Origin: Klebsiella phage N1M2
Strand: one strand, 5' to 3'
DNA: 64,000 nucleotides
Sequence record: MN642089.1
Part shown: positions 19,980 to 61,712 of the stretch, piece after piece
Layout: each line of letters opens with the position of its first letter
Position numbering within the stretch: position 1 is the first letter of the stretch
Program-made: the position numbers and the translations under genes
The notes under the pieces: model-generated
Database searches by the model: none
Told to the model about the DNA's origin: nothing
The model's input: only the letters and a program-made list of their open reading frames with translations

Positions 19980-20014
19980 TATAGCGACCGAACAAAAATA
20001 AGTGATTACGCTTT

Positions 20015-26533: not shown

Positions 26534-26622
26534 AATAATGGCCTGAGATTCAGTTGAAAGAAATTTCAGGTCTATATCATCTAAGTGTATAAGACAATAA
26601 ATATTTATACATGGAGATCTAT

Positions 26623-27285
26623 ATGTCTCGTAATATCAAATACTTAGGTTCTAACTGTAAACCGGTAACAACCGAGACTGTAGAATCTAAACAAACAAAT
26701 CAATTAAACTCTAGTAAGGAAATCAAAATGGAAAACGTACAAACTGCAGCTATCGAACTGAACACCACTGTTGAAGCAGTAGAAACCGCTCAACCTGAAA
26801 CCATCGAAGTTACCGCACCTACCAACAACCAACCTGTGGAAGAGAAAGACATGAACATCGAAACTAAAGAAGACAAACTGAAAGAAGCCGCGCAGATCGC
26901 TTCCGAAGTCAGAACCCGTAATGTTAACTGGCACGCTGTATCTGCATCAGCAGTAATTGCCGGCGTGGCTGTGGGCTCTCGCCTGATCGTTGAAAACAAA
27001 ACCACTGAAGAAAATCACAGTGCTCTGGAAATCGTAGGTCGCGTAGCAGCAGTATCAACTGTTGCTGCTGGTATGAGCTTCGTTACTCAGAAGCTCGCTC
27101 CTTCCATTGCAAATAACGACAGCTATAACCTGATGACCACTGCAACAATTGCAAATGGTCTGAGTGTAGCTGACGCATTCTTCGGTGATGACCTGGTTGC
27201 CATGATGAATGGCGCGGGTGCTAAGGTTACTGAAACTGTAACCGAAATGTTCAACAAAGAAGAAGCAGCAGAACTGGAAGCATAA
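26623..27285 (+). CDS. acidic Ala-rich protein, 220 aa, high-expression codons
   Basis: GGAG sits 7 nt before the ATG at 26623. The track start at 26611 lies inside the RBS. Optimal codons through most of the gene. Confidence 0.65.
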   Translation: MSRNIKYLGSNCKPVTTETVESKQTNQLNSSKEIKMENVQTAAIELNTTVEAVETAQPETIEVTAPTNNQPVEEKDMNIETKEDKLKEAAQIASEVRTRNVNWHAVSASAVIAGVAVGSRLIVENKTTEENHSALEIVGRVAAVSTVAAGMSFVTQKLAPSIANNDSYNLMTTATIANGLSVADAFFGDDLVAMMNGAGAKVTETVTEMFNKEEAAELEA

Positions 27286-34294: not shown

Positions 34295-34888
34295 ATGACA
34301 GTACGCATACTAGGAATAGATCCAGGCATTACTAATCTTGGTGCGGCGGCATTGGAAGTAGACTGTTATGAAAGGAAACCGTTCAAACTTATTTATGCTG
34401 ACACATTACAGGGTGAGTATAATGAGTTTGGGGTAAGGCAGGATAACCCACAGCAAGTACGTGCACTTGGACTCACACGAGTCTATGGTCATGTGTTTGA
34501 GTTAATTGAACCTGCCGTAGTTTCTTGTGAGGATAACTTCTTAGGGATATCCCCTTCGAGTTTTAAACGCCTTATCGAAATAGTTTCTTTCATCCACCAG
34601 TACACTGTAACTAATCAGAAAGATGTTGCCTTTAGACAAGTTCTTCCTCGTCTAGCTAAAAAGATCGTTGATGCAGATTTCAGAGGGACAACTAAAGACG
34701 ATGTTACTAAAGGTCTATTGAAATGTCCTTTCTTAGATCTTAATGGTTTCGATCTGAATAAGTTAACTGAGCACGCTAATGACGCCATATTGTTAGGTCT
34801 TTATACTGCAGTTCAGTATTACCGAGATTTAGGCTGGGACGTGCTTGATGGAAAAGACATCGACAAAACAACCAAGTATCCAAAGTAA
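34295..34888 (+). CDS. RuvC-like Holliday-junction resolvase, 197 aa
   Basis: N-terminus MTVRILGIDPGITNLG matches the RuvC ILGIDPG motif holding the catalytic Asp (DNA 34307-34327). ANDAILLGL near the C-terminus matches the RuvC ADALAIA region. Confidence 0.55.
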   Translation: MTVRILGIDPGITNLGAAALEVDCYERKPFKLIYADTLQGEYNEFGVRQDNPQQVRALGLTRVYGHVFELIEPAVVSCEDNFLGISPSSFKRLIEIVSFIHQYTVTNQKDVAFRQVLPRLAKKIVDADFRGTTKDDVTKGLLKCPFLDLNGFDLNKLTEHANDAILLGLYTAVQYYRDLGWDVLDGKDIDKTTKYPK

Positions 34889-45966: not shown

Positions 45967-48900
45967 ATGTTTGTAGATCCAGATAAACCCTTACCGCCTG
46001 CTGGTGCTAAGGTTGATACACTTGGTTCTGTTCTGGAAGCAATTATTGAAATTGGAAATGCTAAAGCTGTTAGCACCGGTGATGCGGTAGAGTTTGAAAA
46101 ACGTATTACTGAAGCATTACAGGAAACTGATAAAGTAATTGATGGTTTCAGACAAGACGCCACCAACAAAATTAAAGAACACACCGATAAAGAAGGTGCT
46201 GTTCATGGCGAGACCAAAGAAACTGCTGGTTTGGGTTTAAAAGAAAACTGGAAGATGGCGACACCCCAGGAACATTTGGATGGTGAATCACAAGAGAGCT
46301 TCTGTAACCCCCTTGGATTAGCTGCGTTAGTTAAACGCTACATGTCCATCGATCCAACCAACTATATTCGTTCTCGTCTGATGCCAATTGCATCAGGTGG
46401 TCAATTGGGTAATGTCCCTCAGTGGCCATTTAACTGGCGTGAAGGTGAGGTGGTAGAATCACCATTATCATCTATGGATTATTATACACAAACTCCTTGG
46501 CAGTTCTCTACAGACCAAGGTGTGCGTTTATATCCTTCTATGAACGGTTCAGATATCCTTACTCAGAAAAGACCTGACGTAGGGCGTGCTAGACGAGCTG
46601 TAACGCCTTGGGGCGGTACCGATGTTCGTATTTATAATAGCACCTTAGATATCCGTAGAACACGTCCTGGTGTCTTACGTGCAGAATCTAACATAGAACC
46701 AAATAACCAATTGTTAAAAGGTTCACCGCATCTTTTCGATAGACACAGCGTTTTCTACATAGAAAACCAAGATGTCAAGGTCAGAGCGTTTAACAAAATC
46801 AGATTGCCATTCGACACACTTAAGAATGATGGGGCGTTCGCTAAGAACTGGGATGGGATTGTGGAATCTAGAGAGTCCACTATCTATAACCCGGTAATTA
46901 CAATGCAACGTGGTAACTTAGGTGCTGGTGAAAGTATTTATCTTTCAATCAATCTGGATTTGTATAGCTTCACTGAGCATGGCACGGCTGCCAAAGACGG
47001 CCCTGGTAACCCAGCTGAAACAGTCGCCACACTAGGTGACAAATATGACACCATCAACTGGTTGGTGGGTAACAAGAAGTTCGTCATTTATAATCGTCCT
47101 AATGGAGCAGGTAAAGGTATTTTCCTTGACTTGAGAAGTATTCTTAATTTCACTCCTGCGCAATTGGATGGATTCTGGGTCAATGCTGACCATTCCCACG
47201 AACTTCATGTAGCGTTTACCTGGTTGAACAGACTCAAGGGTGAGTTCGCCATTCGTGTTCCATTGGGTTTCTACTCTAAAGACCGTAAATACTACATCAA
47301 CTACTACATGGACTTGTCATTCAAATCCAAAGAACTTGGTGATGGTAAGACAGCAACTATCACTATTGATTCACTGCGAGATATTGATACCAATATCCAG
47401 ACCTTGAATGATAACTTCCAGGTAGAACCAGACGGGCGTTTTGTTGAGTATCCTGCCGATGTCACTAACGATATCTTCCACCCACGTATTTTTGATGGGA
47501 TCTTTGAATCTCAGGGTGGGCATATCAAAACCTATACGTACTATAACCGTCAGTACGTTGGTTACTACCAACATAATGTTGGTGGGACTAAAGAGTGGAT
47601 CGCTAATGGTGATGAGATTAAACCTAAGTTGATTAAATACAACTACGGTCAAATCTCCACACTTAACCAAGACGGTCTGTATGGTGACCACCTAAGACAT
47701 ATCCCGCTGGGTGTAACTGGCGATACCGTCAACTATCTGACATTAACTCGTGATTGGTCAAACACCTATCGCTGGGGTATCGTGAATGCAGAACTGGATA
47801 ACAAGCCAGTTATGTATAGCAGTGCTGATCATGCATATGGTCCTTGGCGTAATACCTTGATCTGGGTAAACCCTAACTACACTAGAGTTCCAGACTTCTT
47901 AGTTGTGAATGAGGAAAACTCCTCCAACTTTGATGTGAACTGTATGGTGTTCAATACCCAGAATGAGTTTAAGGGTTATGCTCAATTCTCTTATAGTACT
48001 GCAGATAGTCAGTCTACTATAGAGGGTGTTGATCCAGTTGAGATAGATGACCAAATCCTGTCTTACATCGCTACCTTTGGTGGTGGTTGGACAAAGAACC
48101 ATCGACAGATGTTCTACTTCCAAAACAGACTGTACTTCTTTAGTCAGTGTCTGTCCATCCCAGAATGGCCGGCTGATGACGTTGACTGTTACTATGGTTG
48201 GATTAGCGGTGCTTACATCGACGTGACCGATGGCGTCAAAACCATCAAGATCAACGGTAATTTAAAAGATCAAACCGTAGCTAAACCGCTCAAAGTAAAT
48301 AACAAGAAGTCAGCAACTAACGATTGGAATAGCGTATTTGGACGAGATCGTTTCGACTCTACCGATACATACCTTATGTTGATGAACCGTAATGGTAACG
48401 TTTCCAAATACAAACTGATGGTTAACCTGGCGCCTCATAACAACTTCTACTTCGAATTTGAATTGGTCGTTGATGCGGGTAATGGAACTACCACTCTGCA
48501 ACCTGACCCTAGTGCTATCGATCCAGTGTTCCCATATGACCCTGCAAAAGGTTATGCGGTTGACTATGAAGCCGTCTCTGCATATGGCACATTAGTTCCA
48601 CACCACATGCACGTAAACTTCCAGTCCCCGGTAATGATGAAGAAATCTCTTTGGAGTTATCGCAAGACGCCTGGTGTTTATGGTGTGTTCTCAATGTCAG
48701 GGAAAACTACCATTGTTAATGGTGGGTTGATGAATGCCATTGAGGGAACTAACATTTATCCAATGGGATCGTTATTAACCATTGGTGGTGGTAACACACT
48801 AGTTAAAATTCCGGTAGATGCCAAAGATTCATTCTATCCTGCAAGTGATGAACTGTTTGTAAGACAGAACGGTACCATTCTTGAGTTGTATGGTCGTAAC

Positions 48901-51864
48901 TATAACCCTAACAACTACGAGACAGAACCTAACGCTGGTGTTGTTCCATGTGGGTTCTTGAAGAATGGAACATTTACTCATTACGACCCGGAAGGTTGGA
49001 GAAACGCATTACTCCCAGTTATTGATAGTTTAAGAATGAACTTTTATGGTTATGGTTCATCCTTCCCTGCCTTTATGGGTATTTATGGTGAAGGTAAACC
49101 AATTAACCGTTTCTTCTTGAACATCAAAGGGACTAAGTTGAAATGGGATACTGCGCAAGGTAGAGTAATACCTCTCAGTGGTTCCAACTCAATTAAAATC
49201 AACGATCAAGTTGTTCAGCCAAATGGTAGTGGGATTTATACAATACCTAATAACTATACTGGCGTATTGAACATTGAGATTTCAGGTTTGCTGGAATTGA
49301 AATGGGCTAAAGGTATGGTTGAATTGGTTGACATTGGTTCTAGTGTTAACAAGTTGAACTTTAAAGGTTCTACTGACTTCACTATCACTAGTGAATTACC
49401 TGGAAACATCGTCGATTTGGATTATGTCTTCGAAGGCGCTACCGGCTCTACTTATCCAGGTATCGAGAAATGGAATACGCAATACGTTCTGAGTATGGAA
49501 GGGACGTTTAAGAATACCGCCAACTTCAATGCCCCATTAGACTCATGGAACGTTAGTGGTTGTAAATCCATGAAAGAGATGTTCATGGGAACTAAGAAAT
49601 TTAATCAACCTATCAATAGTTGGGACGTATCCAATGTGACCACAATGGAATCTATGTTTGAAAACGCCGTGCTTTTCAATCAACCATTGAATAATTGGAA
49701 GTGCGAAAAACTCACTACCGCATCTAAAATGTTCAAAGGGACGATTTCATTTGATGGGGACATGACAGGCTGGTTAACAAAAACCACTTCTGATCTATCA
49801 GAGATGTTTATGAATACCCAGGCATTCACTGGGAAAAGCATTACCAAGTGGTATGTCCAATTTGTAACCGATGTCTCTAGTATGTTCAAAGGTTCCCAAA
49901 AGTTCATGACTAGCGGAGATTTGAGTTATTGGAGATTGGCTAGATGTAGTAATTTTAGTCGGATGTTTGAAGATTCTACTTTCAATGCCGCCGTTAACGG
50001 ATGGGTTTTTGGAAAGTTGTCTGATTGTAGTTATATGTTTAGCGGAACAACTAATTTTAACCGCCCACTTACACAATGGGAATTTGATAACGTTAAAATA
50101 GCCAAAGGAATGTTCCAACAATCTAAAGCTTTCAATCAGGACCTGAAAGATATTTTCTGGGTAAATTGTATTTCATTTAACTCGATGTTTTATGCCTCTA
50201 AGTTTAATGCCTCGGTTTCCGGCTGGATGTTCGCTAGAGAACAAGACCCGGCATCAAAAACAGGAATAGATATGAACTATATGTTCGCATTTACTTCTGA
50301 CTTTATAGGGGATGGATTGGAAACATGGAACACTGAATACGTGACAAGCATGGAAGGTATGTTTAAAAATTGCAACATCTTGGATAAAGACTTATCCATG
50401 TGGGATGTTTCTAAAGTTAAAAACATGGCCTATATGTTTACAGCTTGTAAAGTTTATAACCAATCGGTTAATGACTGGGATGTGAGTAATCTCCTGTACG
50501 CACGCTACATGTTCTCGGAAACAACCCTTTACAACCAGCCTATGGATAAATGGACTACTTCGTCACTCCAGACCATCCAAGGTATGTTCCGTGGCACTAA
50601 GGCATTCAACCAAGATATATCCATGTGGGATACTTCTAAAATTCGTGATATGTCAGAAGCATTTATGAAAGCTGAGAAGTTCAACTACGACTTATCTAGC
50701 TGGAATACTGATTCTGTAACCACGATGCGTGGAATGTTTGAAACCACAGGTGCGTTTGGTACCGGTGATAATAAGTTCTCACTGAGTAAATGGAATACCA
50801 CACAGGTTAGAGACGCGGGTAGAATGTTTGCTGAAAGTAAATATAATGCCAGTGTTGAAGGGTGCTCATGGAGTACTTCTGCTGACCTGACTGGGATGTT
50901 CCAGAATAACCCAGTGTTCAACCAGCCACTTACTGGTTGGGTAGTTAATAACGTTAGATACGTTAAGAATATGTTCTATGGAGCCACTTCCTTTAATAGT
51001 TCTCTTGAAGGACTAAACTGGGAAAAATGTGAAGACTTCAGTTCCATGTTTGAAGGCTGTACTTCCTTCAACCAAGACTTGGGATCTTGGCAGTTTAACA
51101 AATGGTTAAATGGATCTATTCTTTCATCCAACATGTTTAAGAACTGTTTCGCTTTCAAAGGGACCGGTCTTGAAAAATGGGATGGGCTTAACTTCACTAA
51201 CGTCGCTGGAATGTTTAACGGTTGTACCAAGTTTGCAGCAGACATTAGTGGTTGGAAAATCACTCGTATCACCAACTTGGTTAGTACATTTGAAGGATGT
51301 GCTTCGTTTAACTGTGACCTCACTAATTGGGATGTTTCCAAAGTAACATTGTTGACTTCTACCTTTAAAGGTTGTTCAATGTTTAATGGTGATATCAGTA
51401 ATTGGAATACTGGTCTCGTTACAGATATGAACGGAACATTCATGGATTGTACCAACTTCAAAGGTGACATTAGCAAGTGGAATGTTAGAAACGTTATCAG
51501 ATTTGTTGATACGTTCAATACAGCATCTTCATTCGCTGGTGATCTGTCTGGTTGGGATGTAACTACTTCCATTAACTTCTCTGGTATGTTTAAAGCCGCT
51601 GTATCGTTTAACTCTAATATCGGTAGCTGGAATACTGGACGTGCTGTTAATATGAATGACATGTTCAATGGTGCTGTTAAATTCAACCAACCTATCGGTG
51701 GGTGGAACACAAGTATCACTACTGACATGATTTCTATGTTCAATGGTGCATTGGCGTTCAACCAAGACTTGAGTAAGTGGGATGTTAAACGTGTTAACAA
51801 ACACGCTGACTTCGCTACGAACACTCCTTCTTGGGTTGCTCCAAAACCAAACTTTGTAGTATAA
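45967..51864 (+). CDS. giant tail fibre / adhesin, 1965 aa, with C-terminal array of about 25-28 DUF285-like repeats
   Basis: RBS AGGAGA upstream. About the last 800 aa are 26-30-aa units of the form FNQPL..WDVSNVT.M..MF....FN. Confidence 0.85.
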   Translation: MFVDPDKPLPPAGAKVDTLGSVLEAIIEIGNAKAVSTGDAVEFEKRITEALQETDKVIDGFRQDATNKIKEHTDKEGAVHGETKETAGLGLKENWKMATPQEHLDGESQESFCNPLGLAALVKRYMSIDPTNYIRSRLMPIASGGQLGNVPQWPFNWREGEVVESPLSSMDYYTQTPWQFSTDQGVRLYPSMNGSDILTQKRPDVGRARRAVTPWGGTDVRIYNSTLDIRRTRPGVLRAESNIEPNNQLLKGSPHLFDRHSVFYIENQDVKVRAFNKIRLPFDTLKNDGAFAKNWDGIVESRESTIYNPVITMQRGNLGAGESIYLSINLDLYSFTEHGTAAKDGPGNPAETVATLGDKYDTINWLVGNKKFVIYNRPNGAGKGIFLDLRSILNFTPAQLDGFWVNADHSHELHVAFTWLNRLKGEFAIRVPLGFYSKDRKYYINYYMDLSFKSKELGDGKTATITIDSLRDIDTNIQTLNDNFQVEPDGRFVEYPADVTNDIFHPRIFDGIFESQGGHIKTYTYYNRQYVGYYQHNVGGTKEWIANGDEIKPKLIKYNYGQISTLNQDGLYGDHLRHIPLGVTGDTVNYLTLTRDWSNTYRWGIVNAELDNKPVMYSSADHAYGPWRNTLIWVNPNYTRVPDFLVVNEENSSNFDVNCMVFNTQNEFKGYAQFSYSTADSQSTIEGVDPVEIDDQILSYIATFGGGWTKNHRQMFYFQNRLYFFSQCLSIPEWPADDVDCYYGWISGAYIDVTDGVKTIKINGNLKDQTVAKPLKVNNKKSATNDWNSVFGRDRFDSTDTYLMLMNRNGNVSKYKLMVNLAPHNNFYFEFELVVDAGNGTTTLQPDPSAIDPVFPYDPAKGYAVDYEAVSAYGTLVPHHMHVNFQSPVMMKKSLWSYRKTPGVYGVFSMSGKTTIVNGGLMNAIEGTNIYPMGSLLTIGGGNTLVKIPVDAKDSFYPASDELFVRQNGTILELYGRNYNPNNYETEPNAGVVPCGFLKNGTFTHYDPEGWRNALLPVIDSLRMNFYGYGSSFPAFMGIYGEGKPINRFFLNIKGTKLKWDTAQGRVIPLSGSNSIKINDQVVQPNGSGIYTIPNNYTGVLNIEISGLLELKWAKGMVELVDIGSSVNKLNFKGSTDFTITSELPGNIVDLDYVFEGATGSTYPGIEKWNTQYVLSMEGTFKNTANFNAPLDSWNVSGCKSMKEMFMGTKKFNQPINSWDVSNVTTMESMFENAVLFNQPLNNWKCEKLTTASKMFKGTISFDGDMTGWLTKTTSDLSEMFMNTQAFTGKSITKWYVQFVTDVSSMFKGSQKFMTSGDLSYWRLARCSNFSRMFEDSTFNAAVNGWVFGKLSDCSYMFSGTTNFNRPLTQWEFDNVKIAKGMFQQSKAFNQDLKDIFWVNCISFNSMFYASKFNASVSGWMFAREQDPASKTGIDMNYMFAFTSDFIGDGLETWNTEYVTSMEGMFKNCNILDKDLSMWDVSKVKNMAYMFTACKVYNQSVNDWDVSNLLYARYMFSETTLYNQPMDKWTTSSLQTIQGMFRGTKAFNQDISMWDTSKIRDMSEAFMKAEKFNYDLSSWNTDSVTTMRGMFETTGAFGTGDNKFSLSKWNTTQVRDAGRMFAESKYNASVEGCSWSTSADLTGMFQNNPVFNQPLTGWVVNNVRYVKNMFYGATSFNSSLEGLNWEKCEDFSSMFEGCTSFNQDLGSWQFNKWLNGSILSSNMFKNCFAFKGTGLEKWDGLNFTNVAGMFNGCTKFAADISGWKITRITNLVSTFEGCASFNCDLTNWDVSKVTLLTSTFKGCSMFNGDISNWNTGLVTDMNGTFMDCTNFKGDISKWNVRNVIRFVDTFNTASSFAGDLSGWDVTTSINFSGMFKAAVSFNSNIGSWNTGRAVNMNDMFNGAVKFNQPIGGWNTSITTDMISMFNGALAFNQDLSKWDVKRVNKHADFATNTPSWVAPKPNFVV
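49440..51790 (+). repeat. protein-level tandem repeat array (DUF285/PF03382-like, W[DN][VT]S..T.M..MF)
   Basis: Repeats are visible in the translation of 45967-51864. They are degenerate at DNA level. Confidence 0.8.
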
Positions 51865-51873
51865 ACCATAAAC

Positions 51874-51910
51874 TCCCTACCCTTCCTTTCGGAGGGGTAG
51901 GGGTTATGTT
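51874..51910. terminator. bidirectional terminator
   Basis: tccctacccttcc-tttc-ggaggggtagggg (13 bp with GU pairs) followed by ttatgtttactttatt. Confidence 0.75.
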
Positions 51911-51914
51911 TACT

Positions 51915-52910
51915 TTATTGCGGTCCGGCAGAAGTATCACCACCAGATTTAACACCACCGTGTCTGTGACCAAGATAGGAAATCCCACCAATAGTCCAGT
52001 CACCTTCAGATGTACCAGTACCACCTTTCTGACTAAATCCACCATCAAGAGATTGATTACCTTTAATGGTGTAATTACCAGTCTGTTCGTAGTTACCGGT
52101 TTGCTTAGTGTTACCTTTGTGTGTGATGTCGCCTTCTATCATAATTGTTGGAGACTTCCAAGTAGTTGTCTGTGTTTCAATTGCGATAGAGTTATCAGCT
52201 TTGATCTTCAAATCTTTACACTGAAGATCTACATTGTTTTTGCCCTTTAACAACATACTGTCTTCACAGGACATTGTGATATTCTTTTTCTCAATATTCA
52301 AGAATGATTTTTCTTCATTGATAAATGAGAAGGCATGATCCATAGAGTTAATAGAAAGAATATTATTCTCACCATCCACTATACCAAATTGACCATTCCC
52401 TGTATCGAGAGAAAGACAATATGAAGTAGGTTCCCCATTACCTTGACCAGTAACTAACTGGATCATTTTTTTATGGGAAGATATCATGAATATGTAGTAG
52501 TTATCCGGTGTTACTGGGGTATTCGCATCAACATTGGGAGAAGAGGAAAATGCATAAATAACAGTTTCAAGTCTGAGGGTTCCGTCCATACCGAAATAAG
52601 TCCAACGGTATTTAGACTGACCCACAAACTTATAGACAACTACCTTACTACCATTTCTAACATCGGGTGCTGTCACACGGTTCGTATTCAAAGCCAACCA
52701 TGTCGCAGGAACTGTGTTAGAACTTAAAGTTGTACTGGAGCTGGTATCTCCTGTAGGTGTTCTGGTTGTTACGGTTTGTGTTTGGGTTTGGGTCGTGACC
52801 TCACCATCACCCTCAGGAAACATTGATGGGATATAAACTTGTATCTCATCAGTATTAGTTTCCTTATCCATAGCAACAATGCCGACACCCAGGCATTCTA
52901 ATACATTCAT
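51915..52910 (-). CDS. baseplate central spike protein (gpV/gp5-like), 331 aa
   Basis: C-terminus is Gly/Thr-rich beta-strand repeats ending LGHRHGGVKSGGDTSAGPQ. HxH near the tip resembles the iron-binding apex of P2 gpV-type spikes (DNA about 51950-51965). Confidence 0.5.
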   Translation of the reverse strand: MNVLECLGVGIVAMDKETNTDEIQVYIPSMFPEGDGEVTTQTQTQTVTTRTPTGDTSSSTTLSSNTVPATWLALNTNRVTAPDVRNGSKVVVYKFVGQSKYRWTYFGMDGTLRLETVIYAFSSSPNVDANTPVTPDNYYIFMISSHKKMIQLVTGQGNGEPTSYCLSLDTGNGQFGIVDGENNILSINSMDHAFSFINEEKSFLNIEKKNITMSCEDSMLLKGKNNVDLQCKDLKIKADNSIAIETQTTTWKSPTIMIEGDITHKGNTKQTGNYEQTGNYTIKGNQSLDGGFSQKGGTGTSEGDWTIGGISYLGHRHGGVKSGGDTSAGPQ

Positions 52911-52931
52911 ATTTGACCCTTTGAGGTTTCA

Positions 52932-55412
52932 ATGATTACTAAGCTAATTATTAAGAACAATGCGGCGTTATCTAAAAAGGGTGCAACGTACCTAGAGTTA
53001 GATACTAAAGATGTATTTAACATCATAGTGGGTAGAAACGGTTTTGGTAAAACCACCTTGATGGGTGAACTTACCATGCTTCCACCGGATAACGCAGATT
53101 ATTTACCAGGCGGTTATAAAGAAGTACATGCAGTAGTTGGTAAAGATACTTACATCGTTAAATCGACGACAGGTAAGTCCTCTGAACACTTCTTTATCCA
53201 TAATGGAAAAAACCTTAATGAAGGTAACACATTATTGGTTCAACGTGAATTAGTCAAGATTCACTTTGGTGTAACTCCGTTTATCAAGGACGTCATTACC
53301 GGTTTAGATGTGCGTAATCTATTCACCACATTATCAGCACCTAAGCGTAAAGATTTCTTAATGACAGTTAACCCAAATGACACCTCTTATGCTTTAAAGA
53401 TTCATGACAAGTTGAAGTCGAATCTTAATGCACTTAAAGGTGGGTTAAAAACTCAACGTCAGCGTTTAGCTGTTGAAGAAGGTCGTTTGGTACAACTGGC
53501 TTCTATGGATCCTGCAAAGCTCCAAGAAGAGATCAGGGTGATGGACGATCAGATTAAAAATGCTTTAATCATTCACGGTACTTTACAGAACGTTCAACGT
53601 AATGAGTTAACAGGACTTAAGAATGACATTGCAAATATCATTTCATTTTTAATGTCCTCTCATACTCAAGTTAAGCATTCCAAACCTACCTTACTAAAGT
53701 TAAAGATCCAATCAGAGTCCACGCTTGATTATTACAAAACTCGTGAAATCAAGTTAAGTTCTTTGTTGGGTGAATTAGCAAGTCAGTTATCTGGTTTGGA
53801 TTTGGCTAACAACAACCTGGAGACTTATCGTTCTCGCTTAGAACTGAATAACAGGGCTATTGAGATTAACAGGGAAGAACTTCATGCTTTAACACGCAAG
53901 TATGAAGAACATGAGCTGTTTAAGGGAGTCTATAACGATCCTGATTTCCAGGCTTCTGCTTCTGAGTTAGTTAACTATCTTCACGGTGTTAATAAGACCA
54001 ATGACCAGTCAATCACTTCTACGATTTACCAGTCTAAGCAGGAGAGAGCCAGAGAACTCGATAATGAACTTCAAGGGATTCGTCGTAAACTGTCAGATAT
54101 CCAACATCAGTTAGATCATTTTGAGAAAGCTGATTCAGTTGAGTGTCCTAAGTGTACAACTCGTTTCAAAGTTGGGATGGAGAAAGTTAATCCCCAACAA
54201 ATAAGAAATGAAGGAAACATCTTACAGGAACGTAAAGATGTGGTTGAGAAGGAACTGAAAGTTATTTCTGAATGGTTGGAAGATAACCAAGGTTGGTATG
54301 AGTCAATGGGATCTTTGACTCGTTATGCACGTCGTTTCTATAACCCACAGTTAATCATCAGCATGATTTCTGAGTATCGTATCGGTAAAGCTGATATTAG
54401 CATTCTTATCGATCTTATTCGGAGCACTGTGAATTATGGCGAGATCTCGAAAACACTTTCTGTCCTCGAAGAGGAAAATCAGAATGTCGAGAAGCAGATT
54501 AAATTTCTGGAGAGCAGTGATGTTGAAACATTGTTCAAAAGGGCACAGTTTGTGGAACGTGAGTTGGGCTCAGTCCAACGTTCGGTTCGCCGAGTGCTCA
54601 ATGAAATCAATGACTACGACATGCAACTCGATATCATCGAACTCGATGTCCAGAAAAGAGATCGACTTGGTTACCTGATTCAAGAACTGGAAGATAAGTT
54701 AATCGAGAACGGACAATGGCGTATTAAGGTAAGAGTAGAAGAGATCATCCAGGATTTAACCCCTCGTAAAGATCAGCTCATCTCTAACTTGATTCGTTCA
54801 GAATCGCTTAACTCAGTTATCGAATCTATCAAAGAAAATATCGCAGATATGGAACGCCGTGAAAAGCACACTGCTTTGTTACTCGATGGACTATCACCTG
54901 TTAAGGGATTGATTGGTTATTTGATGAATGACTTTCTTAAGTCAGTTGTTGCTAACGTCAACGCTATCATTCAACCTATCTGGACAAACCGTTTACACGT
55001 ACTCAACTGCTCCACCAGTAAAACAGAAGAAGATGTAGATTTAAATTACAGCTTCCCTGTACTTACTGGTTCATCTGATAAACCTAATAAGGATATTGGT
55101 AACTGTAGTGGCGGTGAACGTGAGATCATTAACTTTGCATTCCGTTTAGTCTTACACCGTTATCTTGGAAAACGAACTTGTCTTCCTTTGATGATGGATG
55201 AAGTGGGTGTTGCATTTGATGAACTTCACCGTGGGCGATTCAATGCATATATAGCCGAACAAATCAGACTGGATAAACTACCCCAGACATTTATGATTTC
55301 CCATAGTCATAAAGAGATCTGTTCAGCTGTTCAAACAGCAAACTTCATAGCCTTGAACACTGAAGGTTTGAGACTTGGTTTTGAAATGAACAAGAAGTCA
55401 GTTATTCGTTAA
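52932..55412 (+). CDS. SbcC/Rad50-like SMC-family ATPase, 826 aa, with central CxxC zinc hook
   Basis: N-terminal Walker A GRNGFGKTT (53022-53048). Long coiled-coil middle. CPKC zinc hook at the coiled-coil centre (54144-54155). C-terminal Walker B/D-loop LPLMMDEVGVAFDE (55188-55208) and H-loop-like MISHSH. Confidence 0.6.
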   Translation: MITKLIIKNNAALSKKGATYLELDTKDVFNIIVGRNGFGKTTLMGELTMLPPDNADYLPGGYKEVHAVVGKDTYIVKSTTGKSSEHFFIHNGKNLNEGNTLLVQRELVKIHFGVTPFIKDVITGLDVRNLFTTLSAPKRKDFLMTVNPNDTSYALKIHDKLKSNLNALKGGLKTQRQRLAVEEGRLVQLASMDPAKLQEEIRVMDDQIKNALIIHGTLQNVQRNELTGLKNDIANIISFLMSSHTQVKHSKPTLLKLKIQSESTLDYYKTREIKLSSLLGELASQLSGLDLANNNLETYRSRLELNNRAIEINREELHALTRKYEEHELFKGVYNDPDFQASASELVNYLHGVNKTNDQSITSTIYQSKQERARELDNELQGIRRKLSDIQHQLDHFEKADSVECPKCTTRFKVGMEKVNPQQIRNEGNILQERKDVVEKELKVISEWLEDNQGWYESMGSLTRYARRFYNPQLIISMISEYRIGKADISILIDLIRSTVNYGEISKTLSVLEEENQNVEKQIKFLESSDVETLFKRAQFVERELGSVQRSVRRVLNEINDYDMQLDIIELDVQKRDRLGYLIQELEDKLIENGQWRIKVRVEEIIQDLTPRKDQLISNLIRSESLNSVIESIKENIADMERREKHTALLLDGLSPVKGLIGYLMNDFLKSVVANVNAIIQPIWTNRLHVLNCSTSKTEEDVDLNYSFPVLTGSSDKPNKDIGNCSGGEREIINFAFRLVLHRYLGKRTCLPLMMDEVGVAFDELHRGRFNAYIAEQIRLDKLPQTFMISHSHKEICSAVQTANFIALNTEGLRLGFEMNKKSVIR

Positions 55413-55450: not shown

Positions 55451-56008
55451 ATGAAAAAGCTTTTCCCACTCGCCAATAAAGAAACTCGTTCTCTGTTCGT
55501 TCACCCATCCATTTGTCAGGCATGGGAAATTGGTAGCGAGCATGAAGGTTATGGCCCAGAGCACGAAACCAGTTTCCTGAAACCTGGATTGGTTCCTAAC
55601 CTGGCTAAGCTGTGTAAACCTGATAATGTTTACTTCACGGTAACCGAGGAACCTAATCCAGATACCATGACCATTGATGAACTCCTTATCGGGATCAAAG
55701 ATAAAGAAGGATTCTGGCATAATGTAACACTGTCCAACCTGGAAGTTAAGTTAGAACGTCTTAATGCAGCTCAGTGGGGCATTGATGGCGTTGTTTCTGT
55801 TCCAGTAGATGAAGACCTCACTTGCCGATATGATGGTACCTATATCCATTTGGGCGAAACCAAAGTTATCAACGTTCCTATCAAACTTCGTTATGACCGT
55901 GCTACTCGTGCTCTGTCTTTCTCCAGTCCTATCAGTTATGACGTCGAAGGAATGGAACTTTTAGGTATGGTTCTCGATATTGACTGGCGTGACGCTAAAT
56001 CAGTATAA
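55451..56008 (+). CDS. hypothetical protein, 185 aa
   Basis: RBS AAGGAA upstream. No phosphoesterase (Mre11/SbcD) motifs. Confidence 0.6.
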   Translation: MKKLFPLANKETRSLFVHPSICQAWEIGSEHEGYGPEHETSFLKPGLVPNLAKLCKPDNVYFTVTEEPNPDTMTIDELLIGIKDKEGFWHNVTLSNLEVKLERLNAAQWGIDGVVSVPVDEDLTCRYDGTYIHLGETKVINVPIKLRYDRATRALSFSSPISYDVEGMELLGMVLDIDWRDAKSV

Positions 56009-56065: not shown

Positions 56066-56157
56066 ATATGATTTATTGTTTGTTTCAATACTTTGCTAAC
56101 ACACAGCGTATACGCCGTCTAACAACGGTTGTATAACTTTATTACTGTCACATATTT

Positions 56158-56190
56158 TCAGGCAGATATTATCATTATGTAAAAGTAAAA
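56158..56190 (+). promoter_or_regulatory. second copy of candidate promoter motif AGGCAGATATTATC-N3-TGTAAA
   Basis: TCAGGCAGATATTATCATTATGTAAAAGTAA lies 36 nt upstream of the ATG at 56226. 14/14 identity to 20086-20099, with TGTAAA at the same spacing. Confidence 0.45.
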
Positions 56191-56225: not shown

Positions 56226-57035
56226 ATGAACAGTAAGACCCAGACCAACCTAATGAGTATCTTTTTATTACTCATGTCACTTGTATGGATCTCCACTGTT
56301 TCGACTGCATATGCATCCGTCGGAGCTAATCCAAACGAGTACACTACCAAAATAGTGATGAAACGTTTTGATGGTTTGAAGGAGCATCTCTATGAAGCTT
56401 CTAAAGTAAGTGGGATGGATATGGCTGACTTAGTCGCTATATCGAGTATCGAATCCACCTTACGTACCAATACCCGTTCAAAGTTTTCAAGTGCATCCGG
56501 TGTAATGCAATACACCCGTTCAACTTGGAAACAAGATCGTAAGTTGTATGCTAAACAACTAGGTCTTTCAGAATCGGCTAATGTTTTAAATCCAAGAGCT
56601 AATCTCTTGATCGGTGCCACATCGCTAAACAACCTTAAGCAATTCCTCATAGAAAAATCACACTTGACCGACAAAACTGTCCGTGTAGGTGATCTTTATA
56701 TGAGCCATTTGGTTGGGGCCAACGGTGCACTAGCTGTTATTAACTCTAACAGCAACAAACCAATCAATAAGATCTTAAGAGTTACTAAAGGTAATTATTC
56801 CATGTACTACAAGCCGAATGGTCAGATTCGTACTGCCCGTGAATTCCGCTCTTATATGGATTACCTTGTAAAACGTGAACGCAGCTTCTATGAAAAAGAA
56901 GTAAGACGTTTCCAGATTGCCAAAGTAACTGCCCCTATTATTCGTCCGATCGAAGAAAACTTGTGGGGTAAGCAGTTAGCCATAGCTATCGCAAACACCA
57001 CTAAGTATGTCGGATATAACGATTTAAATAGTTAA
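56226..57035 (+). CDS. lytic transglycosylase (SLT domain) with N-terminal signal peptide or signal-anchor-release (SAR) segment, 269 aa; candidate endolysin
   Basis: N-terminus MNSKTQTNLMSIFLLLMSLVWISTVSTAYA|S has an AxA signal peptidase site. SLT catalytic-region pattern SIESTLRTNTRSKFSSASGVMQYT (E-S...GxMQ). Confidence 0.65.
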   Translation: MNSKTQTNLMSIFLLLMSLVWISTVSTAYASVGANPNEYTTKIVMKRFDGLKEHLYEASKVSGMDMADLVAISSIESTLRTNTRSKFSSASGVMQYTRSTWKQDRKLYAKQLGLSESANVLNPRANLLIGATSLNNLKQFLIEKSHLTDKTVRVGDLYMSHLVGANGALAVINSNSNKPINKILRVTKGNYSMYYKPNGQIRTAREFRSYMDYLVKRERSFYEKEVRRFQIAKVTAPIIRPIEENLWGKQLAIAIANTTKYVGYNDLNS

Positions 57036-57360: not shown

Positions 57361-57370
57361 TATGAAAACC

Positions 57371-57416
57371 TAACTAGGACTGGTTAACACCAGTCCTAGT
57401 TAACCTATGTTTATTT
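57371..57416 (+). terminator. rho-independent terminator
   Basis: taactaggactgg-ttaaca-ccagtcctagtta (13 bp, perfect) followed by acctatgtttattt. Confidence 0.8.
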
Positions 57417-57426
57417 GGAGAAACCA

Positions 57427-58149
57427 ATGAACTTTGAAAGCAGTATCATCTTCACTGAAGGTCCGTTACAGGTAACTTTAAAAGGTCTGTATCCGACAAA
57501 AGGTAAGAAAAGGGAAAAACTAATTATCGATCATGTAGGACATCCTGTAATAGAGTGGTCGGTAGAAGGAGAAGGGTTGGAACCAATCAGTAGCCGCCAA
57601 ACTGTTATTCGTGCTTTAGGTGTCTGTGCTAATGACATGTTTAATGGATTCCCTGAATGTCATAAGGACTATAAACGTTCTTGGCATATGTTGATTCAGA
57701 AGTTAGGTAAACGTTCTTATGCTTCAACTCTACAGGCCGAACTTGATCGTTATCGTTCAGAAATGAAACCATCTTATCATTCCGAGCCGACATTCAAAGT
57801 GAGGGAAAGAGATGCTGTTATTACTCTGTTTAAACCTGATACGGGCGACGATGAATTTAAACTCAGCTTTAAGGTTAGCAAACCAAGTCACTACAGTGTG
57901 CACGGTAATATCGCGATCCGTTGCAATGGGGTTATTCGCCGTATTACTTACGCTCGTGATTTTGGGGTAGATAACATTCCTTACTTACTCAACCAAATTA
58001 AAGAGTGGTTGGATATCGCCGCTGAATCACATCGTTTAGATAAATCGCGTGTCAACATTATGTTGAACAACATAGAAGGTTATCTGAACAAGAAAGAACC
58101 AGCAATTAATTACTTGCTTAGCAATCTTAATGCTGGCAATAATCTATAG
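57427..58149 (+). CDS. hypothetical protein, 240 aa
   Basis: GGAG sits 6 nt before the ATG at 57427. The track start at 57415 is TTG. Confidence 0.6.
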   Translation: MNFESSIIFTEGPLQVTLKGLYPTKGKKREKLIIDHVGHPVIEWSVEGEGLEPISSRQTVIRALGVCANDMFNGFPECHKDYKRSWHMLIQKLGKRSYASTLQAELDRYRSEMKPSYHSEPTFKVRERDAVITLFKPDTGDDEFKLSFKVSKPSHYSVHGNIAIRCNGVIRRITYARDFGVDNIPYLLNQIKEWLDIAAESHRLDKSRVNIMLNNIEGYLNKKEPAINYLLSNLNAGNNL

Positions 58150-58156
58150 GTTAAAT

Positions 58157-60130
58157 ATGGATACTGAAAAATTACGTCGTATACTTGATTTGGAAGCTAA
58201 GATCAAATATCACGATTACATGTACTTCAATCAAGACATGCCAGTTATCTCTGATGCTGAGTATGATGATCTGGTTAGAGAATATAAAGAACTTCTTGAA
58301 CAGGTGCCTGATTATAAATCTCAACTGCGTGTTGGGTTTGTTGAAGTCGATTCTAAACTTTCTACTGTGGAAATCACTGAACCAATGATTTCTATTAGTA
58401 AGAAGAAAACCCCTAAGGACTTTAAAGTATGGATAGCAAGAAATGCTCATGCCAATGAAGTCTACGAAGATAAGCTCGATGGTGTTGCAATACGTCTTGT
58501 ATACACTAACGGCGTGCTTACTGCTGGTCATACCCGTGGTCGTGGAGATATAGGTGAAGATGTAACTCACCGCATGGGTCTGGTTGTTAATATCCCAACT
58601 GAAATTGAAGCTTATAAAGGTTTCGAGAAACGTACAGTTACTGGTGAATGTTTCTGTTTGTTCACAGACTTTGACGAGTATTTAAAACGTCACAGTTTAG
58701 ACCCTAAAGAAACCGACACCCGTTCCCTGGTCTCTGGCTTACTTCGCCGTCAAACACCTGGTGACCGTGAAGACCTACCTATTCAGTTCAAGGTATATAA
58801 CACAGACCTGGAAACTCGTAAAGGCTTTAAGACCTACGATGAACTAATGGGGCATCTTTGTTCTATTGGGTTCGATATCCCTAAACGGTTCACTGAACAA
58901 GAAGTTGAAGAAATGTTATCTTTAGCTTCTAAACCTGTTGGGGAATATCCTATCGACGGGATAGTGGTTAAGATTAACGATCTTCGTGAGTGGGAGAAAG
59001 AACAAACTGGCGAGTATTATACTTATGCCACTTGTTATAAGTTCCCCACATTAAGTTATGAAACTAAAGTCACTGGGATTGATTGGTCTTTAAGTAATGA
59101 AGGTCAATTGATCGGTACATTGATGTACGAATCAGTTGAGTATGATGGAACCAAACTTACACGTTGTAAGTTGGATTACGCAGGAAGTTATTTCGAGAAA
59201 GGGTTGCGAATGGGATCTATCATTCGTATCACCAAGGCTAATGAAATCATTCCTAACTTAGTAGGATTGGTTGACCCAGGTGATGGTGAACGTTTGCACT
59301 ATCCTGAGAACTGTCCTTTCTGTAACAAACCTGTTGAATATTATCAGCTATATGGAACAGCTTATTGTAAGAACGATAGTTGTGAAGGTCAGCTGATAAA
59401 ACAACTTACACGTTTAGTTTCTAAACAAGGTCTGAATATCAAAGGTCTTGGAGATGAACGTGTTCAATCGTTAGTAGATAACGGGTTCTTATCTCAACCT
59501 GCAGATCTGTTTAAACTAACAGAATCTGATTTCATTAACTCTGGTATTGGTAAAGGTGATGCGGAAAATATCCTCAATCAAATCAGTCGGGCTTCTGACC
59601 GGGATATTGTCCATTGGTTATTTGGTCTGGCTATCCCTGGACTTGGACTCGTACGTGCTGCGGATATTAGCAATCTGGCTGCGACCAACGGGTTAAATGA
59701 TGGCTTGCAGTTACACGATGCCAAGTCATTCGTAACGGTACTCAGTGACGCCAAATACATGTCCGACATGTTTGGTCTCGATGGGTTACCTATGGTAACC
59801 CATGTTAAGAAACATGCTGATGAAATATTGGACTTCTTAAGTCATTATGATTTTAACAGGCAGAGTGTTGTTAAAGAAGTTGGGATTCCAATTGCTATTA
59901 CTGGTGCTTGGGCTGCCCTACCTCGTAGCATGATGGAAGAAGGTTTGGCTAATGCTGGATATACAGTAACTGATTCTGTTACTAAGAGTTCTAAGTGTTT
60001 GTTGATTGGTGACAAACCAGGAGCTTCCAAACTAGAGAAAGCAAACCGGTACGGTATCCCTAAGTACAACATTACTCAGGTTCATACCATGAATGGCTTA
60101 ATCGCTTTAATTGAAAGTAAACCACAGTAA
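58157..60130 (+). CDS. ligA: NAD-dependent DNA ligase (LigA family), 657 aa
   Basis: N-terminal Ia domain signature HDYMYFNQDMPVISDAEYDDLVREYKELL (compare E. coli LigA [25 protein letters not shown]). Adenylation motif EDKLDG (58471-58488). Four-Cys zinc finger CPFCNKPV...C..C. C-terminal BRCT-like region. Confidence 0.85.
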   Translation: MDTEKLRRILDLEAKIKYHDYMYFNQDMPVISDAEYDDLVREYKELLEQVPDYKSQLRVGFVEVDSKLSTVEITEPMISISKKKTPKDFKVWIARNAHANEVYEDKLDGVAIRLVYTNGVLTAGHTRGRGDIGEDVTHRMGLVVNIPTEIEAYKGFEKRTVTGECFCLFTDFDEYLKRHSLDPKETDTRSLVSGLLRRQTPGDREDLPIQFKVYNTDLETRKGFKTYDELMGHLCSIGFDIPKRFTEQEVEEMLSLASKPVGEYPIDGIVVKINDLREWEKEQTGEYYTYATCYKFPTLSYETKVTGIDWSLSNEGQLIGTLMYESVEYDGTKLTRCKLDYAGSYFEKGLRMGSIIRITKANEIIPNLVGLVDPGDGERLHYPENCPFCNKPVEYYQLYGTAYCKNDSCEGQLIKQLTRLVSKQGLNIKGLGDERVQSLVDNGFLSQPADLFKLTESDFINSGIGKGDAENILNQISRASDRDIVHWLFGLAIPGLGLVRAADISNLAATNGLNDGLQLHDAKSFVTVLSDAKYMSDMFGLDGLPMVTHVKKHADEILDFLSHYDFNRQSVVKEVGIPIAITGAWAALPRSMMEEGLANAGYTVTDSVTKSSKCLLIGDKPGASKLEKANRYGIPKYNITQVHTMNGLIALIESKPQ

Positions 60131-61190: not shown

Positions 61191-61712
61191 GTGGTCTATG
61201 AGATATTTACTGATGGTAGTTGTTTAGACAACAACCCAGCAGGTGGTCCAGGTGGATTAGCTTGGGTTGCTACTTACGGAGATATCCGAGCTGAACATAG
61301 CAGAGGGTTCTTTAAATCAACTAACAACCGAATGGAGATTATGGCGGTAGTGGATGCTTTATCTAGCATTCAAGAAAAGTCTGTTGTTAAGATTTATACT
61401 GATAGTCAATACACTATTGATGGTGCTACAAAGTGGGTGTGGGGCTGGATTAAAAATGGATGGGTAAGAAAGACCCAATTTGGTGCGACCGAAGATGTTA
61501 AGAACAAAGATCTGTTCCAACGTCTTCATGCACTCACTCGCTTTCATAAAGTTGAATTCATTAAAGTAAAGGCGCACTGTGGTATTCCTGATAACGAACG
61601 TTGTGATGTGTTAGCTAAATTAGCAGCCGCAAATCCCAACGAAATAGATGAAGGATTTATCCCCACAGTGAAAGATCCAAACAAACCAAAGTTTAATTAT
61701 TGGCGTAAATAA
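61191..61712 (+). CDS. rnhA: ribonuclease HI, 173 aa (GTG start)
   Basis: EIFTDGSCL.NPAGGPGG, TNNRMEIMA, IYTDSQY and VKAHCGIPDNERCD align to E. coli RNase HI catalytic motifs (D10, E48, D70, H124, D134 equivalents). GGAG sits 8 nt before the GTG. Confidence 0.85.
   Translation: MVYEIFTDGSCLDNNPAGGPGGLAWVATYGDIRAEHSRGFFKSTNNRMEIMAVVDALSSIQEKSVVKIYTDSQYTIDGATKWVWGWIKNGWVRKTQFGATEDVKNKDLFQRLHALTRFHKVEFIKVKAHCGIPDNERCDVLAKLAAANPNEIDEGFIPTVKDPNKPKFNYWRK

Follow-up and report, generated by a model that had tools for sequence, protein, structure and literature searches.

A Rad50/SbcC-type ATPase of Klebsiella phage N1M2 and its probable SbcD partner encoded at a distant genome site

The described systems closest to the gene considered here are DNA-end-processing nucleases of the Mre11-Rad50 type, E. 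coli SbcCD and phage T4 gp46/gp47. Genes 46 and 47 of T4 are adjacent, and gp46 is about 560 aa long. Here we analyse a stretch of 64,000 nucleotides from Klebsiella phage N1M2 (record MN642089.1; the whole stretch is called the window), in which the open reading frame (ORF) at 52932-55412 encodes an SbcC/Rad50-like ATPase, referred to below as SbcC. An earlier note on the window had described this gene as an orphan with no Mre11/SbcD partner. Our analysis shows that its product belongs to the Rad50/SbcC-type ATPases, with the full set of ATP-binding cassette (ABC) motifs and a conserved hook, and we consider it very probable that SbcC is the ATPase subunit of a phage SbcCD (Mre11-Rad50-type) DNA-end-processing nuclease whose subunit genes lie at separate sites of the genome.

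N1M2 is an OBP-related jumbo phage (PMC7058600) and is placed among the phiKZ-like Chimalliviridae, in the OBP group. SbcC and its SbcD partner have been described as practically universal in jumbo phages and as core recombination apparatus by Iyer et al. (PMC7824862), and both are listed as ORFs far apart in phages RP12 and RP31 (PMC5468394). A transposon study of phiKZ obtained no insertions in orf165 and classes it as a conserved non-virion gene (bioRxiv 10.1101/2025.11.23.690004), and an antisense-knockdown screen lists PHIKZ065 ('nuclease') and PHIKZ165 ('SbcC-like nuclease') among the core genes, each with a phenotype (PMC12571901). Judging by these transposon and knockdown reports, the pair is apparently essential in phiKZ. 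SbcC and SbcD of N1M2 are themselves already annotated, and their phiKZ orthologues are already listed as conserved, fitness-critical core genes, so the identification carries little weight as a discovery; the N1M2 paper and its supplement (PMC7058600) mention neither protein.

Motif conservation was scored over 32 SbcC homologues with identities down to about 20% (positions in Table 1). Residues N36, G37, G39 and K40 of the Walker A motif are invariant in this set, as are Q104, D756, E757, G759, D763 and H791. In the ABC signature, S726 is invariant, with G727, G728 and E729 nearly so. The hook cysteines C405 and C408 are likewise invariant, P406 is nearly so, and the CPKC motif is the sole CxxC of the 826-aa protein. 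Two distant orthologues, phiKZ gp165 and EL gp118, likewise carry a CPxC hook and the ATPase motifs.

The family signal for Rad50/SbcC is well beyond chance. By PHROG search, the protein matched phrog_77, 'SbcC-like subunit of palindrome specific endonuclease', at 1.7e-69, and in Pfam it matched SMC_N at 8.5e-12, exceeding the gathering score; an NCBIfam search gave no match above cut-off. With the single sequence, P. furiosus Rad50 ranked first in the PDB (3.8e-5). With a 32-sequence profile, Rad50 again ranked first (1.2e-10), and proteins of the structural maintenance of chromosomes (SMC) family were matched via the coiled coil only. The protein is identical at 826 of 826 positions to the annotated N1M2 'putative SbcC' (QGH71983.1 / YP_010665581.1).

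To place the protein by fold, we used an AlphaFold2 model, which has a mean predicted local distance difference test score (pLDDT) of 83.8. Two lobes, formed by residues 1-150 and 660-826, are separated by two inserted antiparallel helical arms of about 240 aa each (152-399 and 421-653). At the apex, about 20 residues join the arms; they include a β-hairpin, 402-413, that carries the CxxC, and no hinge domain is present. By Foldseek, the top PDB match was Rad50 in the C. thermophilum Mre11-Rad50-Nbs1 complex (7zr1_D, 5.4e-17), with a full-length alignment. Smc5/6 (2.3e-16), condensin, MukB and Lamassu LmuB follow close behind. The fold alone therefore identifies an SMC-like protein, and it is the hook in place of a hinge, together with the sequence profiles, that specifies Rad50/SbcC. 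A canonical SMC protein (condensin, cohesin, Smc5/6 or MukB) was considered and rejected, as the model has a CxxC hairpin and no hinge and as no kleisin-like gene was recognised on the flanks. From knowledge of Mre11-Rad50-type complexes, the hook is predicted to bind zinc and to mediate dimerisation.

These results bear out the description of the protein given in the earlier note. The strings that it quoted, GRNGFGKTT, CPKC and MMDEVGVAFDE, all occur in the ORF, and the Rad50/SbcC type is upheld by the profiles. Its coiled coil of about 500 aa with a central hook agrees with the two modelled arms flanking the hairpin. The note had also allowed for a best match outside the Rad50 family; phrog_77, the PDB searches and the first Foldseek rank all fell to Rad50/SbcC.

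Named orthologues among the Chimalliviridae include those of Serratia phage Yubaba (89% identity, 'exonuclease subunit 2') and OBP (64%, 'putative SbcC ATPase'), with EL gp118 and phiKZ gp165 at 31% and 24%. The orthologues share with N1M2 SbcC its length, its motifs, its hook and a divergently oriented spike gene as neighbour. The ABC signature varies among them: it reads SGGE in N1M2, OBP and the Aeromonas-phage group, SLGE in EL and SDSQ in phiKZ, and STSQ and SSSM in two metagenomic relatives. Of the signature, the serine alone is invariant across this set, while the other ATPase motifs and the hook are kept.

Both subunits fall into the same PHROG families as T4 gp46/gp47 (77 and 100). 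The likeness extends to the ABC head, the coiled coil and the CxxC hook, to an Mre11-type partner and to a recombination context, with a UvsX-type recombinase in the phage family, a resolvase and a ligase. In contrast to gp46, N1M2 SbcC is 826 aa long, each arm spanning about 240 aa, and the partner gene lies 81-115 kb away in this lineage. The closest solved structures for both subunits come from E. coli SbcCD and Mre11-Rad50, namely Rad50 of P. furiosus and C. thermophilum and Mre11/SbcD of T. maritima, S. aureus and E. coli. All catalytic motifs of these enzymes are kept, but the identity is 10-22%, motif III of SbcD reads GTxSHD and the genes form no operon. Smc5/6, MukB, JetC, LmuB and MADS3 share the SMC-like ABC head and the long coiled coil and give weak profile matches; they differ in that SbcC has a CxxC hairpin rather than a hinge, and kleisin, LmuA or MADS partners are not found near it.

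The SbcD partner is encoded elsewhere in the genome. The N1M2 genome (253,367 bp) holds an annotated 'putative SbcD' of 378 aa (QGH71907.1 / YP_010665505.1), whose GenBank protein accession number is that of SbcC minus 76. In Yubaba, whose circular map measures 255,663 bp, the orthologous SbcD gene lies at 218,485-219,621 and is annotated only as 'metallo-dependent phosphatase-like protein'; SbcC lies at 49,726-52,206, about 88 kb away. The window is collinear with the Yubaba segment that runs from 252,258 across the end of the record to 61,636, and this collinearity places the N1M2 SbcD gene at an estimated 32.6 kb to the left of the first base of the window, about 87 kb from SbcC. Searched by tblastn with two SbcD proteins from Chimalliviridae, the 64-kb window yielded chance matches only (E > 1). 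A strict phosphoesterase expression (GD..D plus GN[HD][DE]) run over all ORFs of the window also found nothing; since the SbcD lineage uses G-T-x-S-H-D, that expression is too strict, and the tblastn search is the valid negative.

The N1M2 SbcD protein was modelled with a pLDDT of 89 and a predicted template modelling score of 0.78. The model comprises a phosphoesterase core, a second α/β domain (254-315), a disordered linker (321-337) and a C-terminal helix-loop-helix (344-376). PDB matches 1 to 32 by Foldseek are all Mre11/SbcD, including E. coli SbcD within SbcCD complexes, and the families that follow, LpxH and purple acid phosphatase, trail them by over five orders of magnitude in E-value. 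The metal-ligand motifs are kept in 37 sequences: D12-x-H14, G49-D50, G89-T-x-S-H93-D94, H167 and G201-H-x-H204. Yubaba SbcD matches phrog_100, 'SbcD-like', at 4.9e-41, and a small SbcD profile searched against the PDB gave significant matches solely to Mre11/SbcD (T. maritima Mre11, 2.5e-4). By its predicted fold, its motifs and the PHROG family of its Yubaba orthologue, N1M2 SbcD is a genuine Mre11/SbcD. The C-terminal helices in the model appear to correspond to the Rad50-binding helices of Mre11 and would thus be expected to bind SbcC.

Phosphoesterase motif III of this lineage is G-T-x-S-H-D, not GNHD. Pfam Metallophos, which reached the SbcD of RP31, missed that of Yubaba at E <= 0.01 because of this replacement, and NCBIfam gave no match for Yubaba SbcD. 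Many records label SbcD of the Yubaba-type lineage merely 'metallo-dependent phosphatase-like' or 'hypothetical'. As SbcD is divergent, missed by Pfam and vaguely annotated, SbcC can look partnerless in annotation-based surveys; the methodological lesson is that a divergent SbcD with a GTxSHD motif III escapes both motif scans and Pfam.

The two genes co-occur throughout the Chimalliviridae lineages checked, and they are unlinked in each. SbcC homologues were found in 290 phage records, nearly all from phiKZ-like jumbo phages, and SbcD in 307-311. Counted per gene by host genus, records of SbcC and SbcD number 81 each for Pseudomonas, 62 each for Erwinia, 24 each for Salmonella, 21 each for Serratia, 14 each for Klebsiella and 13 each for Ralstonia, with 22 and 23 for Vibrio and 20 and 19 for Aeromonas. 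phiKZ gp65 is the SbcD orthologue (30% identity, 9e-42). The genes lie 81 kb apart in RP31, 88 kb in Yubaba, 89 kb in Kc263, 97 kb in EL and 115 kb in phiKZ, and the pair is also present and unlinked in OBP; across the family this distance of 81-115 kb stands in place of the adjacent, operonic arrangement that is typical of Rad50/SbcC genes without strictly defining them. In IMG/VR, scans with each protein alignment drew different distant clades, and the direct comparison of both genes covers six uncultivated OBP-group genomes; all six carry both genes, 87-91 kb apart. Scans with a single protein returned few close relatives, and the ENA sample accessions of the contig with an exact SbcC match (ERZ12343533) and of the nearest metagenomic SbcD contigs differ, giving no same-sample link.

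With the partner located, the status of the gene changes. The earlier note was right that neither flank holds an Mre11/SbcD gene, which by tblastn is absent from the whole window, and its suggestion that SbcC may work with a distant nuclease is now favoured, given an SbcD about 87 kb off that co-occurs across the phage family. The label 'orphan' fails, as the genome has an annotated SbcD with the Mre11/SbcD fold and motifs. An Mre11 gene immediately outside the window, which the note had also envisaged, exists in substance, since SbcD does lie outside; it is not adjacent, however, being about 33 kb away. The orphan appearance is an artefact of a limited window and of scrambled gene order in the family: where functional modules are scrambled, as in Chimalliviridae, the lack of a partner in 64 kb does not make a gene an orphan.

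Two observations concern the surroundings of SbcD. In Yubaba/N1M2-like metagenomic contigs, a gene for a 154-aa protein with a precomputed Pfam match to Acb1 (PF23474, an anti-CBASS phosphodiesterase family) lies about 1.6 kb upstream of SbcD, at positions of about 895-1360; by this family match, it is a candidate anti-defence factor of the N1M2/Yubaba phage group. One SbcD-family member, EBY9764067.1, was deposited as a 'hypothetical protein' of Salmonella enterica serovar Saintpaul on a contig of 267,347 bp, which is probably a complete jumbo-phage genome in a bacterial assembly (carrier state or contamination).

By analogy with Mre11-Rad50, E. coli SbcCD and T4 gp46/gp47, a mechanism can be proposed for the pair. 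SbcC and SbcD would assemble as (SbcC)2(SbcD)2, with the SbcC heads dimerising around two ATP and the apices of the coiled coils joined by a shared Zn2+ held by the four hook cysteines. An SbcD dimer would dock, via its C-terminal helices, onto the coiled coils of SbcC at their base. By binding and hydrolysing ATP, the complex would clamp DNA ends or hairpins, licensing SbcD to cut and resect. The resected double-strand ends may then allow the UvsX-type recombinase to initiate recombination-dependent replication and to repair the large genome, which is terminally redundant. Resection for phage recombination is most likely the main role of SbcCD, by this analogy, and breakdown of host DNA is a possible additional or alternative one.

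A question for specialists is whether the SbcCD of a nucleus-forming phage acts on phage DNA ends in the nucleus or on host DNA in the cytoplasm. The same enzyme could be cytoplasmic and chiefly degrade the host chromosome or other foreign DNA rather than phage DNA in the nucleus, which we regard as unlikely. A 'putative exonuclease' of phage RAY, which may or may not be SbcD, is cytoplasmic and would fit such a role. Host DNA degradation by phages is usually dispensable, and SbcC and SbcD are core, apparently essential genes. Ligase, RNase H, resolvase and helicase genes, nearby or co-conserved, point to transactions of phage DNA instead, as does the reading of SbcC/SbcD as core recombination apparatus (PMC7824862). 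A literature search gave no SbcC localisation data for nucleus-forming phages, and 'gp165' led only to the unrelated PhiPA3 numbering.

Several points weigh against SbcC being the ATPase subunit of a phage SbcCD. The Foldseek margin of Rad50 over Smc5/6 is small (5.4e-17 against 2.3e-16), so it is mainly the hook, the sequence profiles and the partner that carry the family call. The ABC signature, canonical in N1M2 SbcC, is degenerate in the phiKZ and EL clades, so that ATP-driven head engagement may differ there. The presence of SbcD in N1M2 is known via database records, and its position via collinearity with Yubaba. The searchable literature yielded no experiment on the complex, the nuclease activity or the subcellular location of a Chimalliviridae SbcC/SbcD. 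Lastly, the two genes are unlinked, unlike bacterial sbcDC, archaeal mre11-rad50 and T4 genes 46/47, and co-regulation can therefore not be read from an operon. The split genes, with SbcC locked to the spike gene across the family, could instead reflect separate regulation or compartments. SbcC would then act independently of SbcD at some stage, for example on host DNA or as a tether or organiser of the phage DNA in the nucleus, and the complex would form only conditionally; we hold this to be quite improbable.

Less probable still is an SMC-like SbcC altogether independent of SbcD, which, by itself or with some other partner, would tether or organise DNA or serve as an ATPase in anti-defence or in a defence-like function akin to that of Lamassu LmuB or MADS3. 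Besides the separation of the two genes, what speaks for such a protein is a set of weak PADLOC matches, to mad3 (1.8e-12) and LmuB (2.6e-12), and the presence of LmuB, Smc5/6 and MukB among the Foldseek matches. These defence-model scores are tiny against the phrog_77 match, neither flank has a partner of the LmuA, MADS or kleisin type, and the protein has a hook and not a hinge. Moreover, each of the lineages checked also encodes a true SbcD that carries a helix-loop-helix at its C-terminus. A Lamassu LmuB or MADS3 defence ATPase was specifically rejected on its low PADLOC scores and on the neighbours of SbcC, which are a spike, a hypothetical ORF, a transglycosylase and a ligase.

We return to SbcC as the SbcCD ATPase and to the position of its gene. 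The earlier note placed it between spike and lysis genes, correctly: the spike gene lies to the left and, to the right, a 185-aa ORF is followed by the SLT transglycosylase (Table 1). The start codons of the spike gene (52910, minus strand) and of SbcC (52932, plus strand) are separated by 21 nt (52911-52931), so any promoter has to be located within the opposing ORF unless the two genes share it. The divergent pair was found in 23 of the 25 loci compared, down to about 23% SbcC identity, including phiKZ gp164/gp165 and EL gp117/gp118. Downstream of SbcC, the DNA ligase and RNase H block recurs in EL (gp118 to gp122). Elsewhere, the window mixes virion genes (major head protein, internal head, structural) with genes for a DnaB-like helicase, a polymerase and a RuvC-like resolvase. 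SbcC thus stands at a conserved border, with a tail block on one side and DNA metabolism on the other, and the modules of this family are scrambled.

So persistent a head-to-head pairing, with start codons so close, might suggest that SbcC is a virion- or baseplate-associated protein, an idea to which we give almost no credence. orf165 was classed as non-virion in the phiKZ transposon study (bioRxiv 10.1101/2025.11.23.690004), and the phiKZ record labels gp160, gp162, gp163 and gp164 as structural but not gp165. SbcC is transcribed opposite to the spike gene and has DNA ligase and RNase H downstream, and the biology of ABC ATPases and SbcC offers no reason for packaging. The adjacency to the spike gene is ancient inherited synteny and does not speak for a function in the virion. 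The non-canonical repair, anti-defence or virion-associated functions that had been suggested as alternatives are accordingly unsupported, in view of the annotated SbcC and SbcD, their family-wide co-occurrence and the non-virion class of orf165.

Table 1. Features of SbcC and its surroundings in the 64,000-nucleotide window
Feature	Position	Strand	Basis and remarks
SbcC/Rad50-like ATPase gene	52932..55412	+	ATG start, 826 aa; Pfam SMC_N, phrog_77, AlphaFold2 and Foldseek
Walker A / P-loop GRNGFGKTT, residues 34-42	53031..53057	+	Read from sequence; homologue alignment
Q-loop glutamine Q104	53241..53243	+	Invariant in homologue alignment; kept in phiKZ gp165 and EL gp118
Hook motif C405-P-K-C408, coiled-coil apex	54144..54155	+	Alignment and AlphaFold2 β-hairpin 402-413
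ABC signature SGGE, residues 726-729	55107..55118	+	Alignment; aligns to P. furiosus Rad50 signature
Walker B and D-loop MMDEVGVAFDE, residues 754-764	55191..55223	+	Homologue alignment
H-loop histidine H791	55302..55304	+	Invariant in homologue alignment
gpV-type baseplate central spike gene	51915..52910	-	Pfam Apex 2.2e-5, phrog_3216 6.9e-95
185-aa ORF, function unassigned	55451..56008	+	tblastn: OBP group only
SLT-domain lytic transglycosylase	56226..57035	+	Pfam SLT 1.8e-6; Yubaba orthologue annotated putative endolysin
NAD-dependent DNA ligase	58130..60130	+	Pfam DNA_ligase_aden 2e-29
RNase H	61191..61712	+	Pfam RNase_H 5.8e-38
RuvC-like Holliday-junction resolvase	34295..34888	+	phrog_159 1.3e-16
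Terminator-like GC hairpin and T-run, overlapping the SbcC stop codon	55411..55428	+	Consensus scan; pattern match only

By tblastn, matches to the 185-aa ORF are confined to Yubaba, OBP, pEt-SU and four uncultivated contigs of the OBP group, and in each the match directly follows SbcC. It has no PHROG match, and its Pfam match to the phiKZ major capsid family PF25620 is below threshold (E 4.4e-4; 19 bits, where the cut-off is 27).

No sequence upstream of SbcC matches the published N1M2/OBP early-promoter consensus. The sole two matches to the core of this consensus in the window, at 26564-26587 (+) and 56156-56179 (+), carry 2 and 3 mismatches, with 0 expected by chance, and precede the ORF at 26611-27285 and the SLT transglycosylase gene, respectively. 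Two further strong hairpins are terminator-like. One, at 51874-51903, has a 13-bp GC-rich stem and lies between the spike gene and a convergent gene for a 1965-aa protein; the other, at 57370-57403, is a near-perfect palindrome of 14-15 bp, seen on both strands just before the ORF at 57415-58149.

The 1965-aa protein is encoded at 45967-51864 (+), and the C-terminal two-thirds of it consist of many tandem repeats of about 25 aa. In Yubaba, the orthologous region carries the annotation 'outer surface protein', and in pEt-SU it is labelled 'BspA family leucine rich repeat surface protein'; a giant tail-fibre or host-recognition protein is the probable identity of the 1965-aa product. Its gene is preceded by two more ORFs of about 1240-1250 aa. 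Finally, a G+C peak at 18001-20000 (0.49, compared with about 0.41 elsewhere) overlaps the major head protein gene at 17802-19979 (phrog_3231, 5.2e-173).

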